This document shows positions 1-8,611 of a stretch of 8,611 nucleotides of DNA, piece after piece. Origin of the DNA: a virus (Duplodnaviria; Heunggongvirae; Uroviricota; Caudoviricetes); IMG/VR virus record IMGVR_UViG_2563366981_000001, positions 1 through 8,611 of that record, one strand, 5' to 3'. The position numbers and the translations under genes were made by a program. Below the pieces are notes generated by a model, which was not told where the DNA came from, made no database searches, and saw only the letters and a program-made list of their open reading frames with translations. Within the stretch, counting starts at the first letter, position 1. Each line of letters begins with the position of its first letter.

Positions 1-1254
1 ATGCTGGAACAAATGGGCATTGCCGCGAAGCAAGCCTCGTATAAATTAGCGCAACTCTCCAGCCGCGAAAAAAATCGCGTGCTGGAAAAAATCGCCGATG
101 AACTGGAAGCACAAAGCGAAATCATCCTCAACGCTAACGCCCAGGATGTTGCTGACGCGCGAGCCAATGGCCTTAGCGAAGCGATGCTTGACCGTCTGGC
201 ACTGACGCCCGCACGGCTGAAAGGCATTGCCGACGATGTACGTCAGGTGTGCAACCTCGCCGATCCGGTGGGGCAGGTAATCGATGGCGGCGTACTGGAC
301 AGCGGCCTGCGTCTTGAGCGTCGTCGCGTACCGCTGGGGGTTATTGGCGTGATTTATGAAGCGCGCCCGAACGTGACGGTTGATGTCGCTTCGCTGTGCC
401 TGAAAACCGGTAATGCGGTGATCCTGCGCGGTGGCAAAGAAACGTGTCGCACTAACGCTGCAACGGTGGCGGTGATTCAGGACGCCCTGAAATCCTGCGG
501 CTTACCGGCGGGTGCCGTGCAGGCGATTGATAATCCTGACCGTGCGCTGGTCAGTGAAATGCTGCGTATGGATAAATACATCGACATGCTGATCCCGCGT
601 GGTGGCGCTGGTTTGCATAAACTGTGCCGTGAACAGTCGACAATCCCGGTGATCACAGGTGGTATAGGCGTATGCCATATTTACGTTGATGAAAGTGTAG
701 AGATCGCTGAAGCATTAAAAGTGATCGTCAACGCGAAAACTCAGCGTCCGAGCACATGTAATACGGTTGAAACGTTGCTGGTGAATAAAAACATCGCCGA
801 TAGCTTCCTGCCCGCATTAAGCAAACAAATGGCGGAAAGCGGCGTGACATTACACGCAGATGCAGCTGCACTGGCGCAGTTGCAGGCAGGCCCTGCGAAG
901 GTGGTTGCTGTTAAAGCCGAAGAGTATGACGATGAGTTTCTGTCATTAGATTTGAACGTCAAAATCGTCAGCGATCTTGACGATGCCATCGCCCATATTC
1001 GTGAACACGGCACACAACACTCCGATGCGATCCTGACCCGCGATATGCGCAACGCCCAGCGTTTTGTTAACGAAGTGGATTCGTCCGCTGTTTACGTTAA
1101 CGCCTCTACGCGTTTTACCGACGGCGGCCAGTTTGGTCTGGGTGCGGAAGTGGCGGTAAGCACACAAAAACTCCACGCGCGTGGCCCAATGGGGCTGGAA
1201 GCACTGACCACTTACAAGTGGATCGGCATTGGTGATTACACCATTCGTGCGTAA
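1..1254 (+). CDS. proA: gamma-glutamyl phosphate reductase (glutamate-5-semialdehyde dehydrogenase), complete
   Basis: 417-aa ORF from ATG at 1 to TAA at 1252-1254; full-length collinear match to recalled enterobacterial ProA ([20 protein letters not shown]... through ...[12 protein letters not shown]). Followed by a tRNA-Thr as in the E. coli proBA-thrW locus. Confidence 0.96.
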
Positions 1255-1368
1255 ATAAAACCGGGTGATGCAAAAGTAGCCATTTGATTCACAAGGCCAT
1301 TGACGCATCGCCCGGTTAGTTTTAACCTTGTCCACCGTGATTCACGTTCGTGAACATGTCCTTTCAGG

Positions 1369-1444
1369 GCCGATATAGCTCAGTTGGTAGAGCAGCGCAT
1401 TCGTAATGCGAAGGTCGTAGGTTCGACTCCTATTATCGGCACCA
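1369..1444 (+). tRNA. thrW: tRNA-Thr (anticodon CGU), intact, thrW-type; integration target (attL side) for the adjacent prophage
   Basis: 76-nt sequence GCCGATATAGCTCAGTTGGTAGAGCAGCGCATTCGTAATGCGAAGGTCGTAGGTTCGACTCCTATTATCGGCACCA. Acceptor stem GCCGATA/TATCGGC pairs, anticodon loop carries CGT, T-loop GGTTCGACTCC, 3' CCA encoded. thrW is the known attB of P22/Sf6-type phages. Confidence 0.95.
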
Positions 1445-1458
1445 TTTAAATCAATAAG

Positions 1459-2622
1459 TTACACATCATTAGTACCTTCCTTATTTTTTGACTGGGACAA
1501 ATTTGGGACCGATGGGTTCAGGATCGAGTCTATTTGCCGTGCGTGTTCGGTAAGGTGATTAGGTGCAAGGTGAGCATATCGACGAACCATTTCGATAGAC
1601 TCCCAGCCTCCCATTTCCTGTAACACTGACAACGGGACTCCGGCTTGAACCAGCCAACTTGCCCAGGTGTGTCTCAAGTCGTGAAATCTGAAATCATCAA
1701 TACCAGCCCGTCTCAGCGCCGCTTTCCAGGCTGTGTTTGCGTCATACCGCATCTTCCTTACTGTTGGCGCTTTCGTTCCGTCTGGTTTGGTACAGCTTTC
1801 CTTGTACACAAATACCCAACGGTGATGATTCCCGATTTGTTTTTTCAATACGCGACATGCAGTATCATTCAGCGCAACGCCAATTGCGCGGTTTGATTTA
1901 CTCTCTTCCGGGTTTATCCATGCCACCCGGCGCTGCATATCTATTTGTTGCCATTCAAGGTTGATGATGTTCGAGCGTCTTAAACCTGTTGCCAGTGCAA
2001 ATTCAACAACAGACTTTAATGGCTCCGGACATTCATCAATCAGCCTTTGTGCTTCATGGGGCTCCAGCCAGCGGATCCGTTTATTCTTTGGTTGAGGCAC
2101 TTTAATAATTGGTGCCTTATCCAGCATTTTCCATTCACGCTCTGCGGCTCTTAGTAGGGCCTTTATAAATGAAAGATGCGTAGCCTTCGTTGCAACGGAC
2201 GCTGGTTTTGGCGTGTATTCTGGAACAGGTTTCCCTTTTTTTCTGCATGCTTCTGCCCTGAGTTTCCAGTTTTCCTCATGACGCCGGTTCGTCATTTTCT
2301 GCATTGCTGAATAAATTTTTGATTCAGTAATGTCTCTTAGTTGCATTCCTGCGAAATGTTGAAGCCAGAATCCGATCCGGCTTTTGTCATCGTCCAGTGA
2401 TTTTTTATGTGCTTTCTCTTCAAGCCACCTGACACACGCTTCCTCGAACGTTATATCAGGTATTTCACCAAGTTTGCTGACCCGCCATGCTTCAGCCTTT
2501 AGCTTGTCATGGAGTTCTGTCGCCTGCCTTTTGTCCTTTGTTCCAAGAGACTGTTTAAATCTTTTACCGTTCGGCAATGTGAAACTGGCGTACCATATTT
2601 CACCTCTGCGGAAGAGTGACAT
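1459..2622 (-). CDS. int: phage tyrosine integrase (P22/Sf6-like Int)
   Basis: 387-aa ORF; stop codon 14 bp from the tRNA 3' end and convergent with it (classic tRNA-int attL arrangement). N-terminus [22 protein letters not shown] matches recalled P22 Int; C-terminal catalytic region contains [15 protein letters not shown] ... VRRYAHL (R/H-x-x-R/Y tyrosine-recombinase motifs). Confidence 0.92.
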
Positions 2623-2849
2623 TTTCTTTCCTCTGTTATGCCATCACCCGCGCTCACCTGGACAGTATGCAGCGGAGACTGAAGAGCCGCAATGCAGGCT
2701 TGTCGTGTTGTGAGGTAAGGAGATTTATTCTTAGTGGGATCTTTGCGTGTTGCCTGAAGACGCCCTGTGCGTATCCAGTTAATGGCAGTCGGTCTGGATA
2801 TCTTGAGAAAATGACAGGCCTCATCGAGTGTGAGGCTGTATGGCTCCAT
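2499..2849 (-). CDS. xis: excisionase (P22-like Xis)
   Basis: 116-aa reading frame starting at the internal ATG (complement of 2847-2849) of the 144-aa track ORF: [40 protein letters not shown]..., which matches recalled P22 Xis. Lies immediately upstream of int and overlaps its 5' end (2499-2622). Confidence 0.78.
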
Positions 2850-3154
2850 TATTTCACCTCTTGCTGTGACATTGTTGAAAAATGGATACCAGCTCGTTGC
2901 TGCCAGACGATCCAACCGAGAGTCATATCCCATGCCATGTATTCGTTATCGCCGTTTTTTGCTCTCCGACGATCTACTAAGTCACCGAAACGCTTTTCCA
3001 TGAATAATTCATAAGCTTCGCGTTCATCTGGTTCTACTTCCAGCGATAGGAGTGCGATTTCATAAGCACGGCGCTCAATATCGTCTCGCACGTCAAGGCT
3101 GCTGATACGCTCTTTAATTTCTTTAATCAGTTCTTTGTCGGTAAAAGTGATCAT
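2849..3154 (-). CDS. hypothetical acidic phage protein, translationally coupled to xis
   Basis: 101 aa from ATG (complement of 3152-3154), preceded by GGAG 6 nt upstream (CTGGAGCATA-ATG). Its stop TAA overlaps the xis ATG (TAATG at 2847-2851). The track ORF start at 3178 is a TTG inside the IS1 inverted repeat and is rejected. No family recognised. Confidence 0.55.
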   Translation of the reverse strand: MITFTDKELIKEIKERISSLDVRDDIERRAYEIALLSLEVEPDEREAYELFMEKRFGDLVDRRRAKNGDNEYMAWDMTLGWIVWQQRAGIHFSTMSQQEVK

Positions 3155-3219
3155 TATGCTCCAGGGTGATGCTGCCAACTTACTGATTTAGTGTATGATG
3201 GTGTTTTTGAGGTGCTCCA

Positions 3220-3495
3220 GTGGCTTCTGTTTCTATCAGCTGTCCCTCCTGTTCAGCTACTGACGGGGTGGTGCGTAACGGCAAAAGCACCGCCGGACAT
3301 CAGCGCTATCTCTGCTCTCACTGCCGTAAAACATGGCAACTGCAGTTCACTTACACCGCTTCTCAACCCGGTACGCACCAGAAAATCATTGATATGGCCA
3401 TGAATGGCGTTGGATGCCGGGCAACAGCCCGCATTATGGGCGTTGGCCTCAACACGATTTTACGTCACTTAAAAAACTCAGGCCGCAGTCGGTAA
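3220..3495 (+). CDS. insA: IS1 InsA (transposition inhibitor / N-terminal part of InsAB')
   Basis: 91-aa ORF (GTG start) [43 protein letters not shown]... with zinc-finger Cys pattern; matches IS1 InsA. Confidence 0.95.
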
Positions 3496-3917
3496 CCTCG
3501 CGCATACAGCCGGGCAGTGACGTCATCGTCTGCGCGGAAATGGACGAACAGTGGGGCTATGTCGGGGCTAAATCGCGCCAGCGCTGGCTGTTTTACGCGT
3601 ATGACAGTCTCCGGAAGACGGTTGTTGCGCACGTATTCGGTGAACGCACTATGGCGACGCTGGGGCGTCTTATGAGCCTGCTGTCACCCTTTGACGTGGT
3701 GATATGGATGACGGATGGCTGGCCGCTGTATGAATCCCGCCTGAAGGGAAAGCTGCACGTAATCAGCAAGCGATATACGCAGCGAATTGAGCGGCATAAC
3801 CTGAATCTGAGGCAGCACCTGGCACGGCTGGGACGGAAGTCGCTGTCGTTCTCAAAATCGGTGGAGCTGCATGACAAAGTCATCGGGCATTATCTGAACA
3901 TAAAACACTATCAATAA
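3414..3917 (+). CDS. insB: IS1 InsB frame (expressed as InsAB' transposase by -1 frameshift)
   Basis: 167-aa ORF ...[28 protein letters not shown]... in the -1 frame relative to insA; the slippery TTAAAAAAC motif is present at 3469-3477 within the overlap. Confidence 0.9.
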
Positions 3918-3955
3918 GTTGGAGTCATTACCCAGGAATTGTTTCCAGAATATGA

Positions 3956-4330
3956 GGATCGGGAACGCTTCCTGATGATGTTATTGAAATTACAAGAGAA
4001 ACATATGAGCAATTTCTTGGGCTGCATCCAGAAGGGAAAGAAATTGGCGCTGACAGTTCAGGACGGCCAGTATGGATTAATTCCCCACCCCCTTCAAAAG
4101 AGGATGAGGTGTTGACGGCTGAAATGAAAAAAATATCTTTGGTTTCTGAAGTCAATACCTACATCAATACTCATCAGTGGCCTGGCAAAGCGGCGATTGG
4201 TCGTCTGAAAAGTGAGGAACTGGCGCAATATAATTTGTGGCTGGATTATCTGGACGCACTGGAACTGGTTGATACCTCCAGTGCGCCAGATATTGAATGG
4301 CCTACGCCTCCGGCAGTTCAGGCCAGATGA
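3956..4330 (+). pseudogene. tail fiber assembly protein, 5'-truncated fragment (Tfa/U-family C-terminal part)
   Basis: Open frame without stop from 3956 to TGA at 4328-4330 (ATG-initiated part 4109..4330), ending ...LWLDYLDALELVDTSSAPDIEWPTPPAVQAR. The DTS(S/T)APD(I/V)xWP C-terminal signature is that of lambda Tfa / Mu U-type chaperones. No plausible N-terminus; the frame begins 24 bp from the IS1 right end. Confidence 0.5.
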
Positions 4331-4904
4331 CATCCGGCGCGGTGCTGGTATCTGTTGCCGTCACCGCGTCAATGTAATCCAGCACAGCGTTAAGTCGGGT
4401 GTTTTCTGTCTGCGTCAGCTTCCGCCCGGCCTGTAATTTCAGTTGAATCAGACTGATGGAAGCCATTGCAGCATCAATCAGCGACTGGCGCTGTGCTTCT
4501 GCCGCTTCTACTGCGGCGCTATGCTGTGCCTCAGTATCGGTCACCCATTTCTCACCATCCCATTTATCGTATGGCGTTAACGGTGCGAGAGTGGTTGTAT
4601 TTTCGGGATAGTCGCCTGGTGCTGTGATTTCTTTAGCATCTCCCGTTTCGGTGTTATAGACAATTTCACCGCGATGGTCTGGCACATATTCCCATGAGTT
4701 AAAATCTGCAGAACGGCAGATTGCATAACCAGTTTTGTATGAGCCAGGAGCATCTAAACAGGAACATGCCGGAATGCCGACACCCACAGCAAGATATTCA
4801 GTTGATGTGAAAATATATTCCCGTGTTTCACCATCATAGTTATAAACCGTAATATTTCCTGCCTGGGTGGCGATAAATTCGTTATTTAATACATCGTAAT
4901 CCAT
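4302..4904 (-). CDS. tfa: tail fiber assembly protein (Tfa; lambda Tfa / e14 TfaE-like)
   Basis: 200-aa ORF; central ...EYVPDHRGEIVYNTETGDAKEI... and C-terminal ...DTSTAPDVIWPELPEA resemble recalled lambda Tfa (VEDHRGKTVYDVASGDA...; ...RVDTSTAPDIEWP). Start ATG overlaps the stop of the upstream tail-fibre segment (TAATG at 4902-4906). Confidence 0.85.
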   Translation of the reverse strand: MDYDVLNNEFIATQAGNITVYNYDGETREYIFTSTEYLAVGVGIPACSCLDAPGSYKTGYAICRSADFNSWEYVPDHRGEIVYNTETGDAKEITAPGDYPENTTTLAPLTPYDKWDGEKWVTDTEAQHSAAVEAAEAQRQSLIDAAMASISLIQLKLQAGRKLTQTENTRLNAVLDYIDAVTATDTSTAPDVIWPELPEA

Positions 4905-5404
4905 TATGCAGCCCTCACGATATAATTAAAGGCAATGTTACGAGGACGGTTTTCGTTTGCAGTTGGAACAACTCTGGAAGCATCAAATGTTACTCGCTTT
5001 GCATAACCACCTTTAATTGAATCAGATGAAGCATCTCCGATGACGCTGGTTATAAAAACGCCAGAGTCAGAAGGATAGGTATTAAACCTGACATCTACTA
5101 ATGCACCAATTATATTTCGAATGGTATCTCCCTGTGACGAAAGCAAGCTACGGTTAGTATCAATCCCTCTTCCATCATCCCAGCCACGAATAAACTCACC
5201 GCGTAAATCAGGCAATTTATTTGTCGGGTAAACCTTTGCCAGTTCCGGGTATTCTTCAGCAGAAAAAGCCGCTCCGTTGCATTTCAGCCAGCCTGTTGGC
5301 GGAGTGGCGGAAGGCCACGGAACAGGCACGCCAACGGGTAATGCCGAACCTTCTCCCAAACCAACGTTTATGAAAATGCAGAAATAACGAGCAGATGACA
5401 TCAT
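4904..5404 (-). CDS. side tail fiber protein, C-terminal variable segment (e14 StfE-like; lacks the constant N-terminal part)
   Basis: 166-aa ORF directly upstream of and coupled to tfa, with a hix/gix-like crossover site inside its first ~20 codons and an invertase gene adjacent. This is the arrangement of the Sv'/U' half of Mu G, P1 C and e14 P invertible segments. Not a stand-alone gene. Confidence 0.7.
   Translation of the reverse strand: MMSSARYFCIFINVGLGEGSALPVGVPVPWPSATPPTGWLKCNGAAFSAEEYPELAKVYPTNKLPDLRGEFIRGWDDGRGIDTNRSLLSSQGDTIRNIIGALVDVRFNTYPSDSGVFITSVIGDASSDSIKGGYAKRVTFDASRVVPTANENRPRNIAFNYIVRAA
5351..5376. promoter_or_regulatory. candidate invertase crossover site (pix/hix/gix-like 26-bp site, 12-2-12 with AA centre)
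   Basis: TTCTCCCAAACC-AA-CGTTTATGAAAA. Both half-sites fit the recalled Hin/Gin half-site pattern TTnTCnnAAACC (right half as reverse complement TTTTCATAAACG); 18/26 identities to recalled gix TTATCCAAAACCTCGGTTTACAGGAA. It sits at the 5' end of the stf variable segment, 55 bp from pin. Confidence 0.45.
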
Positions 5405-5430
5405 TCCTGCTTTTGTCAGGGAGATCTACC

Positions 5431-5985
5431 ATGCTTATTGGCTATGTACGTGTGTCAACAAATGACCAGAACACAGATCTACAACGTAATGCGCTGAACT
5501 GTGCAGGATGCGAGCTGATTTTTGAAGACAAGATAAGCGGTACAAAGTCCGAAAGGCCGGGACTGAAAAAACTGCTCAGGACATTATCGGCAGGTGACAC
5601 TCTGGTTGTCTGGAAGCTGGATCGGCTGGGGCGTAGTATGCGGCATCTGGTCATTCTGGTTGAGGAGTTGCGCGAACGTGGCGTTAATTTTCGCAGCCTG
5701 ACGGATGCTATTGATACCAGCACACCGATGGGGCGTTTTTTCTTTCATGTGATGGGGGCCCTGGCTGAAATGGAACGAGAACTGATTGTTGAACGAACAA
5801 AAGCTGGACTGGAGGCTGCTCGCGCACAGGGACGAATTGGTGGACGTCGTCCCAAACTTACACCAGAACAATGGGCGCAGGCCGGGCGATTAATTGCATC
5901 AGGCGTTCCTCGCCAGAAGGTGGCGATCATCTATGATGTTGGTATATCGACACTGTATAAGAAGTTTCCGGTCGGAGATAAATGA
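5431..5985 (+). CDS. pin: serine DNA invertase (Pin/Gin/Hin/Cin family)
   Basis: 184 aa from ATG at 5431 (AGGGAGA 7 nt upstream): MLIGYVRVSTNDQNTDLQRNAL... with catalytic Ser in the YVRVSTNDQ motif and a C-terminal HTH (GRIGGRRPKLT...VAIIYDVGISTLYKK). Near-collinear with recalled e14 PinE. The upstream ATG at 5395 is rejected as an N-terminal extension. Confidence 0.93.
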   Translation: MLIGYVRVSTNDQNTDLQRNALNCAGCELIFEDKISGTKSERPGLKKLLRTLSAGDTLVVWKLDRLGRSMRHLVILVEELRERGVNFRSLTDAIDTSTPMGRFFFHVMGALAEMERELIVERTKAGLEAARAQGRIGGRRPKLTPEQWAQAGRLIASGVPRQKVAIIYDVGISTLYKKFPVGDK

Positions 5986-6026
5986 AACCGTAGCACGTCG
6001 TATGCAAGATCGTGCTGCGGTTTATG
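5986..6026. terminator. candidate bidirectional rho-independent terminator between convergent pin and the GIY-YIG gene
   Basis: Imperfect hairpin AACCG-t-AGCACG ... CGTGCT-g-CGGTT (5986-6022) followed by TTTAT, in the 57-bp gap between the pin stop (5985) and the stop of the convergent gene (6043). Confidence 0.35.
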
Positions 6027-6042
6027 CTTATCACTTAAAGAC

Positions 6043-6912
<870 letters not shown>

Positions 6913-6991
6913 CTAAGCCTTTGAATTTACAAGTACAAAAAAGATACTTTTCCTCATAATGTGAATTAATTTTATGTTTCGTTTGATGATT

Positions 6992-7057
6992 GGACCGGTC
7001 TCGAAAACCGGAGTAGGGGCAACTCTACCGGGGGGGCAAATCCCCCTCTCTCCGCCA
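6992..7057 (+). tRNA. tRNA-Ser(CGA) 3' fragment (serU-like; anticodon stem to CCA end); pseudo-tRNA / att-site remnant, not a functional gene
   Basis: GGACCGGTCTCGAAAACCGGAGTAGGGGCAACTCTACCGGGGGGGCAAATCCCCCTCTCTCCGCCA matches the recalled 3' two-thirds of E. coli tRNA-Ser(CGA): anticodon loop CT-CGA-AA, long variable arm, acceptor 3' strand TCTCTCC + CCA. The 5' ~24 nt (acceptor 5' strand, D-arm) are absent, and the T-loop reads GGGCAAATC rather than the expected GTTCAAATC. Confidence 0.7.
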
Positions 7058-7640
7058 CTTTATCAATGACTTATCTCCCGACTTCCCGCCTTGCTTTTCC
7101 TAAACAGAACAATCGTAGAATATTCTTGAAGGGTTAGATCGTCACTGTTTTCTGTTCGATACTGTGACATTCAGCACTTGATTCGCTATGGATCTGACAG
7201 GAAGGTTTCGAGCGAAAATCTGCAGTTATTCAGTCGTTTTCTTATCGGTCACCATTATTCTTTTAGACATTGATCCTACAAAGCTGCCGCAAAGTTGGTG
7301 GTGGGAACTGAAGTTGCGTAGAGAAGGGGTCAATACCCGGAGGCAAACATGGGCTGGCAAAAGTGTAGCGGTATTAGGCGCAGCTATTTAGCCTAGTTAT
7401 GTTTTATGAAAACTTGATATCATATAAGTGTCTTACTTATTGGCTGTAAATAAGGTTTTCTAAGGAATTGTTTCTTTAGCATCATTTGTAACTGTAACGG
7501 AATTTATAATCCTTTACTTTATTTTTACGGTATTTTTTATCACACCCTATTTTTTATGTGGTTTTTTATACTAAAGTTTGGCAAAGTGAACTTTATATGC
7601 ATATACTTCATCCTGGTTTCAGTTAAATTGGGTGGATGAT

Positions 7641-8384
7641 ATGGCAACTACATGTTCAGTTATATTGATTTTGGAGTCCTTTGATGTTTATTTCGGAAAA
7701 GAGAGTGTGTTTCTGGATAGAGGTTTATCTGTACTTGTCGACTCTAGCTATAGAGATTTTTTCCTGACATATCCTGAAAGAGTGATAGTGGCGGATTTTG
7801 GCGCTGAGTTTATTAGTCGCTATTTGAAAGCTAATAACTTAAGGGATATTTCTGATTGTAGGGAATATCCATCTTATTTAAAAATAAACTTTGCTGACTT
7901 CAGTTTAATTAAAGGATTAATTAGTTGGGCTAATCACTGTGCTGAATATATAGAAATTTTTGATGAGTCTATTGCTTTTACATGTCTCTCTGCATTTTCT
8001 TCTGAAAAACAATTTGGAGTATTTCTGTTTGGATGTTTGAAAAGCACAGGGGCTAAAGTTAAAACGATTATTCATACGGATTTATCTGCACCATGGCATC
8101 TTAAGGATATATCATCAAGATTATATCTCAGCGAAAGTTTACTAAAGAGGAAATTGAAAGAAGAGGGGGTATCATTCAGTAAGATCATACTTGATGAGAG
8201 GATGCAAATGGCTGAATATTTACTCAGCACTCGTTGTTATCCTATTAGTAAAGTAGCTAAGGTCTGTGGTTATGCCAGTGTCTCATACTTTACTTATGTA
8301 TTTAGACGTTATTTTGGTGTTTCTCCAAGTCAATACTCTCAGAGGAGTTCAGAAAGTAAAATTCTTACTCACCAGGGAATCTAA
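7641..8384 (+). CDS. AraC/XylS-family transcriptional regulator (AppY/YdeO/EnvY-like)
   Basis: 247 aa from ATG at 7641 (GGTGGA 5 nt upstream; the track's GTG at 7632 is less likely). N-terminus MATTCSVILILESF parallels recalled AppY MDYVCSVVFICQSF and YdeO MSLVCSVIFIHHAF. C-terminal double HTH: ...PWHLKDISSRLYLSESLLKRKLKEEGVSFSKIILDERMQMA...CGYASVSYFTYVFRRYFGVSPSQY. The gene and its surroundings are visibly AT-rich. Confidence 0.85.
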   Translation: MATTCSVILILESFDVYFGKESVFLDRGLSVLVDSSYRDFFLTYPERVIVADFGAEFISRYLKANNLRDISDCREYPSYLKINFADFSLIKGLISWANHCAEYIEIFDESIAFTCLSAFSSEKQFGVFLFGCLKSTGAKVKTIIHTDLSAPWHLKDISSRLYLSESLLKRKLKEEGVSFSKIILDERMQMAEYLLSTRCYPISKVAKVCGYASVSYFTYVFRRYFGVSPSQYSQRSSESKILTHQGI

Positions 8385-8388
8385 TCAT

Positions 8389-8611
8389 TGTTCTTGCCCC
8401 CTTATTTCCAGACAGGGGGTGTATCTTAAGTTAACGTTACCCGCTGACGTCGATATTCTCGCGGAGAGCGATAACCCAACGCACTGTGCGGATGGTTTTC
8501 ATTGTAATGTTCGATCGCTACTGCAAGATTATGCAATGCCGTTCTTATATTCGGTTTCGGCATGAACGCGATGTAGTCTTCCTTCATCGTTTTCACGAAC
8601 CTTTCTGCCAT
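8389..8611 (-). mobile_element. IS2-group (IS3 family) insertion sequence, right end only; continues beyond the window
   Basis: Terminal sequence TTGCCCCCTTATTTCCAGACA (8395-8415) resembles the recalled IS2 right inverted repeat (TTTGCCCCTATATTTCCAGACA); a transposase C-terminus lies immediately inside. The exact terminal base (about 8386-8392) is uncertain. Confidence 0.6.
8426..8611 (-). CDS. IS3-family (IS2-group) transposase OrfB, C-terminal 61 codons (partial; N-terminus outside window)
   Basis: ...[55 protein letters not shown] closely parallels the recalled IS2 InsD C-terminus (...AESFVKTIKRDYISIMPKP...[25 protein letters not shown]), including the conserved Glu of the DDE triad in the N-x-x-AE-x-F motif. 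The ATG at the window edge is coincidental. Confidence 0.7.

Follow-up and report, generated by a model that had tools for sequence, protein, structure and literature searches.

A complete copy of the insertion sequence IS1 almost certainly marks an internal deletion of about 34 kb, bounded by the IS1 itself, in a prophage that Escherichia coli carries at the tRNA gene thrW. From its sequence, we assign this prophage to the SfIV/SfV-like temperate myoviruses that integrate at thrW. The window (the whole stretch of 8,611 nucleotides analyzed here) occurs in full, with 100% identity, in scaffold KB732702.1, part of the draft assembly GCA_000351525.1 of E. coli. Relative to the prophage of E. coli EC11, the missing DNA amounts to 33,694 bp; its left limit lies in the gene upstream of yfdT and its right limit at codon 15 of a gene for tail-fibre assembly. 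DNA has been deleted, the endpoints of the deletion fall exactly at the two IS1 termini, and the deleted segment lay inside the prophage. We infer that the loss was mediated by transposase acting from a single IS1 rather than by RecA acting between two copies.

The left arm of the prophage is preserved up to the IS1. Beyond proA (1-1254), the window contains the integration site thrW, a tRNA-Thr(CGU) gene on the forward strand (1369-1444; called by ARAGORN and scored at 71.8 bits with the Rfam tRNA model), and the attL core repeat (1399-1454), a 56-nt sequence shared with attR. Three intact genes are then found on the reverse strand: a tyrosine integrase (1459-2622; an ORF of 387 amino acids with a Pfam Phage_integrase match at E=3e-48, called by PGAP as 1459-2577), an excisionase (2499-2849; Pfam HTH_17, with an excisionase annotated under the match in SfIV, SfV, and SfII), and a yfdT homologue of 101 amino acids (2849-3154; also identified from the EC11 gene table), whose DNA is 100% identical to the annotated yfdT of many E. 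coli genomes. The exact integrase protein is present in 28,578 blocks of the collection. The nucleotides next to the IS1 (3155-3164) are the final 10 nt of an upstream phage ORF that was otherwise lost in the deletion. Over positions 1445-3164, the arm is 99.7% identical to SfIV, 99.2% to SfV, and 98.8% to SfII, the Shigella myoviruses that integrate at thrW (PMC3851460). P22-type phages match int-xis only, at 80% identity, and the label "P22-like" given by the initial annotation therefore stands at the level of the int-xis module and fails for the left arm as a whole.

The arm is shared by rather different prophages. In LR-17-1, the structural genes to which the identical int-xis-yfdT arm is attached are those of a lambda-like siphovirus, whereas in EC11 they are myovirus genes for an HK97-type head and a Mu-like tail. 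At the right end, LR-17-1 carries a GIY-YIG gene where EC11 presents other cargo (a DUF4145 gene and a hypothetical gene). These two prophages reveal strong module mosaicism at one att site.

The IS1 (3165-3932, forward strand) is of the IS1A type and is exactly 768 bp long. It starts with GGTGATGCTGCCAACTTACTGAT... and ends with ...ATCAATAAGTTGGAGTCATTACC, and its imperfect terminal inverted repeats of ~23 bp (IRL, 3165-3187; IRR, 3910-3932) were recovered as inverted arms by a repeat search. Both of its reading frames are on the forward strand: insA (3220-3495), with a full-length Pfam match to InsA, and the insB frame (3414-3917), with a full-length match to DDE_Tnp_IS1. The motif TTAAAAAAC at 3469-3477 includes the A6C site of -1 frameshifting (3471-3477, forward strand), and the three domains expected of the family (Zn_ribbon_InsA, HTH_Tnp_IS1, and DDE_Tnp_IS1) are all matched at full length. 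The element is identical at 768 of 768 positions to PGAP-annotated IS1A-family copies in other genomes. The length, the ends, and the domain matches all agree with the earlier description of a complete IS1 with canonical ends. We also observed that the flanking bases prolong the terminal inverted repeat by 5 nt (TCCAG at 3160-3164 and CAGGA at 3933-3937, 4/5 complementary), which is consistent with chance.

No direct duplication of 8-9 bp was found on either side of the IS1, as a simple insertion would have required. The 9-bp flanks are ATGCTCCAG on the left (3156-3164) and CAGGAATTG on the right (3933-3941), which verifies the earlier claim that they differ and that a target-site duplication is missing. 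That claim would have fallen if a repeat of 8-9 bp had appeared with shifted IS1 boundaries. When the boundaries were shifted, the longest direct word common to both junction zones was 5 nt, and only CAG belongs to the true flank on both sides. Near-identical genomes without the IS1 fix both boundaries to the base: EC11 is colinear with window positions 1-3164 and then continues with CCTCCGG where the IS1 begins, and ten uninterrupted tfa genes are colinear with the window from 3933 and carry ...TTTTTATCTG immediately upstream. Rescuing a duplication by moving the IS1 boundaries was therefore abandoned, CAG being all that the flanks share. As a positive control, the same script was applied to three other IS1 copies in the loci that we fetched (L002, L018, and L019), and perfect 9-bp duplications were recovered at all three. 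This indicates that our method would have detected a duplication at 3165-3932.

Both ends of the deletion coincide exactly with IS1 termini, which rules out an unrelated deletion that merely abuts the IS1. A later simple insertion of IS1 into an existing deletion scar does not fit either, since it would have left a duplication.

Intact relatives allowed us to reconstruct what was lost. EC11 possesses a 40-kb att-to-att prophage at thrW whose int-xis-yfdT arm matches the window at 100% identity between 2623 and 3164. This prophage presents, in order, early genes, an HK97-type head, a Mu-like contractile tail, baseplate J, YmfQ, a tail fibre, tfa, tfaE, an inverted fibre segment, and pinE. In STEC719, a full prophage of ~42 kb lies between thrW and paoD, with a right arm that shares 97% identity with the window and consists of tfa, tfaE, the fibre segment, pinE, a GIY-YIG gene, an AraC gene, an rve fragment, and the flank formed by a LysR fragment and paoD. 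Over 3933-8611, a draft genome (L009) matches the window at 99.9% identity; upstream, it runs uninterrupted into the tail-fibre, baseplate, tape-measure, and sheath genes. Both breakpoints thus coincide with IS1 termini (EC11 up to 3164 and L009 from 3933), with colinear flanks on either side. As proposed earlier, the interior that separates the int module from the tail-fibre/invertase module in uninterrupted thrW prophages is missing here, and no genome that we compared presented the same two flanks contiguous without an IS1.

The IS1 had been described as joining two unrelated phage modules. It is conceivable that two elements, either tandem prophages or one prophage and a distant locus, were fused, with chromosomal DNA perhaps missing between them. 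The int-xis-yfdT arm is indeed mosaic, as its association with lambda-like structural genes in LR-17-1 attests, and tandem elements at thrW do exist: a P4-like integrase is found after attR in EC11 and ykfI after attR in isolate 12. We nevertheless consider such a fusion unlikely. EC11 and STEC719 each hold both types of arm, in the same order and orientation, within one intact, att-bounded prophage at thrW, which identifies the arms as the two ends of one phage type and contradicts the notion of unrelated modules. In addition, SfIV, which matches the left arm, also shows similarity to tfa, and the remnant is flanked by a single attL and a single attR, with the same chromosomal genes beyond (a LysR fragment and paoD) as those found beside an intact prophage.

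The position of attR also defines the limits of the loss. The 56-nt repeat of the thrW 3' end (1399-1454) recurs on the source scaffold at window-equivalent positions 8874-8929, 263 nt beyond the right end of the window, and is followed by the LysR fragment and the pao genes as beside intact prophages. With attR retained, the deletion is wholly internal to the att-bounded element, and everything from 1455 to the window end lies within one attL-attR pair. The survival of attR leaves no place for the loss of chromosomal DNA that had been suggested as a possibility. An inversion was discarded as an explanation in place of a deletion; the right flank keeps the orientation and order of intact prophages (attR, LysR fragment, paoD).

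Several properties identify the element as the remnant of an SfV/SfIV-like prophage: its location at thrW, the attL/attR repeat, and the 99.7% identity to SfIV over 1445-3164. We detected none of the genes for an HK97-type head and a contractile Mu-like tail in the window, and these genes are present in the intact relatives at thrW; the window therefore holds a remnant and not a phage. The gene content relative to intact relatives shows that every gene for immunity, replication, lysis, the head, and the tail is missing, and we conclude, in line with the earlier proposal of a defective element retaining int/xis and cargo, that it is defective and can yield no phage. What has been retained comprises attL, attR, int, xis, yfdT, pin, a CMoRE/PD-T4-3 nuclease gene, and a likely orthologue of the patE gene. 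Excision may still be possible, given that int, xis, and both att sites were kept.

The window derives from a draft scaffold, and its left junction, between yfdT and the IS1, was seen in that assembly only. A short-read scaffold might have been mis-joined through a collapsed IS1 repeat, all the more as short-read contigs of other samples break inside the IS1. We regard such an artefact as highly improbable: the window is free of gaps, and the two flanks are arranged colinearly with those of intact prophages, as would be expected of a genuine deletion. Moreover, the junction between the IS1 and tfa was found, together with a private 1-nt deletion nearby, in contigs of three unrelated read sets, each of which starts 28 nt inside the IS1 end. 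These junctions were located by searching for the 73-aa frameshifted tfa product; the short-read contigs end within the IS1 and thus cover the right junction only. The recurrence of the right junction and of the 1-nt deletion in three independent read-set assemblies indicates that both are real and do not stem from a single assembly.

How the deletion formed must be judged from its product. Our favoured route, to which we give somewhat better than even chances, is an adjacent deletion from a single IS1. One IS1 would initially have entered the prophage by simple insertion, either 10 nt upstream of yfdT or within tfa. Its transposase would then have attacked a second site of the same prophage by intramolecular replicative transposition, the process known as adjacent deletion. 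The intervening DNA would have been discarded as a circle, leaving one IS1 whose flanks come from two different places and which consequently lacks a target-site duplication. We favour this route because it requires one prior insertion in the 34-kb interval instead of two and because IS1 is reportedly the classical former of adjacent deletions. IS1 in gal is the classical case of an IS-promoted adjacent deletion. IS copies that lack duplications are documented to arise both by adjacent deletion and by recombination between IS copies (PMC11708052).

The main competitor is RecA-dependent homologous recombination between an IS1 upstream of yfdT and a second, independently inserted copy of like orientation in tfa, by which the interior would have been looped out and a single hybrid IS1 left behind, with a flank from each of its parents. 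The final sequence expected is exactly the one observed and is identical to the product of an adjacent deletion. IS1 is abundant in E. coli, where it occupies up to at least 40 places per genome, and recombination of this kind is a recognized and frequent cause of missing duplications (PMC11708052). The two insertions needed are plausible as well: independent IS1 insertions were found in a tfa gene of the same cassette (isolate 12) and in the yfdR-yfdQ region, between these two genes (CE0007a). Against this, two independent events would have had to occur inside one 34-kb interval, and neither parental insertion was found in 5,426 E. coli genomes or in the viral, metagenome, and species-representative collections. 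The IS1 is also not visibly chimeric, being 100% identical to a common allele, although this is weak evidence. Overall, recombination between two copies is a serious possibility that we hold to be less probable than an adjacent deletion.

Ancestral forms were searched for in the same data. None of the 5,426 complete E. coli genomes, among which this lineage is thinly sampled, presented an IS1 with a duplication at either site, and exact patterns for the real and the hypothetical ancestral junctions yielded 0 matches in viral contigs, metagenome contigs, and species-representative genomes. Several partial matches were rejected. Those reaching ~30 nt to the left of the IS1 (H83, H87, and others) were chance extensions at unrelated loci (the tam and slp regions), and two that covered 87-88% of the junction query (H81 and H82) were two-piece matches in which the IS1 lies ~1 kb from yfdT in a CPS-53-like prophage. 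The IS1 in tfa of isolate 12 was not retained as an ancestor either: it lies elsewhere and points the other way, its sequence is a 96.9% variant, and a 9-bp duplication of its own flanks it.

That an IS1-bearing intermediate was found nowhere in the genomes and collections searched could also be read as a sign that there was none, the IS1 having been captured at a double-strand break or gap as the deletion formed, in one step, independently of transposase and with no earlier resident IS1. Events without duplications have been reported, and this route has been proposed for some IS5 and IS481 events (PMC11708052). However, missing intermediates are expected anyway for a rare lineage, such capture is undocumented behaviour for IS1, and in the long-term evolution experiment (LTEE) 14 of 14 cases of an IS plus a deletion were stepwise adjacent deletions (PMC11708052). 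We therefore view a one-step capture as very unlikely. If true, it would extend the unexplained route of IS5 and IS481 to IS1 and to natural isolates.

To the right of the IS1, the tail-fibre cassette bears the marks of the deletion. The first gene (3933-4330, forward strand; Pfam Caudo_TAP and alignment to ten intact copies) is the remnant of a 147-aa tail-fibre assembly gene, tfa. Its first 45 nt (15 codons) are missing, and homology resumes at 3933, exactly between codons 15 and 16. An additional 1-nt deletion (a G at ~3958, GGATGCGGG to GGATCGGG), located 26 nt further on, shifts the frame. This nucleotide is missing in none of the ten intact homologues, and its loss is common to the three independent read-set assemblies; it represents secondary decay after the truncation of the gene. 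The frameshift explains why tfa had appeared to start 24 bp from the IS1 when its homology in fact begins at the first base after the element.

The rest of the invertible cassette includes a second tail-fibre assembly gene (4302-4904, reverse strand; Pfam Caudo_TAP), which is intact and encodes a protein of 200 amino acids that recurs unchanged in many Mu-like and P2-like prophages. It is adjoined by an alternative C-terminal segment of the tail fibre (4904-5401, reverse strand; Pfam Collar and gene calls in L012 and L009), for which no constant N-terminal part is left for joining. Both the tfa fragment and this stf fragment are pseudogenes. The serine invertase gene pin (5431-5985, forward strand; 184 aa, Pfam Resolvase and HTH_7, annotated as pinE in relatives) is intact. 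A switch of the Pin/Gin/Hin type needs two crossover sites, and a single one survives (5350-5369), recognizable as the place where orientation switches between the window and two related loci (L010 and L013). We found no second, inverted copy of the site in the window. Its partner lies 488-507 nt upstream of the breakpoint in the intact locus L009, that is, in the deleted DNA. By removing one crossover site, the deletion has locked the tail-fibre cassette, which can no longer invert. Other prophages of the same cell could still be substrates for the intact Pin acting in trans. Just after pin, positions 5963-6019 (forward strand) gave a sub-threshold Rfam match to the Shigella sRNA CssrB (32 bits, where the gathering score is 76); this match covers only a terminator-like hairpin, which is probably a plain intrinsic terminator.

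The cargo genes at the right end have been retained. A gene on the reverse strand (6043-6816), labeled "LEM-3-like GIY-YIG", is predicted to encode a type IV restriction nuclease and is a near-exact copy of CMoRE/PD-T4-3: PADLOC reported PD-T4-3 at E=2.4e-140 over residues 1-256 of 256, and 253 of 257 residues (4 differences) are identical to PDB 9U75, the crystallized CMoRE of O157:H7. CMoRE is a single-gene type IV endonuclease that cuts the hmC/ghmC DNA of T-even phages (PMC12923530). The CMoRE/PD-T4-3 gene lies at the right end of thrW prophages and was kept in each decayed version that we examined. Further on, an AraC-family regulator (7641-8384, forward strand) shares 243 of 247 residues with the single AraC protein encoded in the thrW element of O157:H7. 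The tail-fibre genes of that element, together with the literature, indicate that it is CP-933H, from which PatE, an activator of acid resistance, comes; PatE is described as a CP-933H product (PMC11879457). The regulator of the window is thus probably the PatE orthologue, the identity of PatE being taken from secondary citations. The window ends within an IS3-type transposase fragment (8426-8611, reverse strand; rve_3, PF13683 gene call in L012), which is annotated in relatives as an incomplete integrase core domain and lies inside the att-bounded element.

Two further observations concern the segment between the nuclease and the regulator. Positions 6992-7080 reproduce, at 97.8% identity, the 3'-terminal 66 nt of the tRNA-Ser gene serU together with the next 23 nt downstream, and drew no ARAGORN call. 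This copy looks like the relic att site of a serU-integrating element within the right arm, which suggests that the AraC/rve segment came from another island. In strain 11PC (L001), the place of window positions 6965-7149 in the equivalent prophage arm is occupied by a corA-ysgD segment, around which lie two inverted IS1 copies (7847-8614 and 10321-11088), both without a duplication. Here, chromosomal genes were brought into the remnant by an IS1-mediated translocation or inversion.

The deletion resembles known cases. IS-promoted deletions, whether adjacent or between IS copies, share the loss of tens of kilobases, a single remaining IS, a deletion that ends at an IS terminus, and no duplication. 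We see no difference in kind; here the substrate is the interior of a prophage and the intermediate is unsampled. A documented case of IS-linked deletions is that of IS150 in the Lenski long-term lines (PMC11708052).

The element itself closely resembles CP-933H of O157:H7, and it should be labeled an SfV-like remnant equivalent to CP-933H rather than a P22-like remnant. The two share the thrW site and, at 97% DNA identity, the succession of tfa, tfa, stf fragment, pinE, GIY-YIG (CMoRE), AraC (PatE), and rve fragment, and both are internally deleted. They differ in that the deletion of CP-933H is independent and without IS1, joining a replication gene to a tail-fibre gene, and in that its int is truncated whereas cI, cro, and cII were kept. 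SfIV, SfV, and SfII share the attP-int-xis-orf arm (98.8-99.7%) and the set of head and tail genes seen in intact relatives, but carry gtr genes for O-antigen modification next to attP, where the present E. coli lineage has the Pin-invertible fibre cassette, CMoRE, and an AraC regulator. No ORFs for gtrA, gtrB, or gtr(type) were found between pin and the window end, a region that holds the GIY-YIG gene, the serU fragment, the AraC gene, and the rve fragment. A further parallel is provided by e14 of E. coli K-12, a defective prophage that likewise combines int/xis with a Pin-invertible stf/tfa cassette, after which comes mcrA, a type IV restriction gene. In contrast, e14 is located in icd, its decay is not known to be linked to IS1, and it has kept both crossover sites, such that its segment still inverts. 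PGAP gives e14 gene names (pinE, tfaE, ymfQ, and stfP) to genes in relatives of the present element.

Independent events have gutted the same thrW prophage in no fewer than four lineages of E. coli, represented by this strain, O157:H7, 11PC, and isolate 12. The deletion in 11PC joins int to baseplate J, and that in isolate 12 joins an exonuclease gene to a tail gene, with the IS1 in tfa as a separate event. In all four lineages, the right arm was kept with pin, the CMoRE/PD-T4-3 nuclease, and the AraC-type regulator that is likely the PatE orthologue. The phenomenon is already known, being ordinary and well-understood prophage decay in a known kind of element. For annotation, it means that the tfa and stf fragments are to be treated as pseudogenes and that the Pin switch is dead in this remnant. 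For the biology of these elements, the locus illustrates, cleanly and to the base, how a textbook process runs in nature, in which an IS turns an active prophage into a fixed remnant, and the recurrent pattern at thrW fits prophage domestication, with selection for useful cargo while the lethal functions of the phage are lost.
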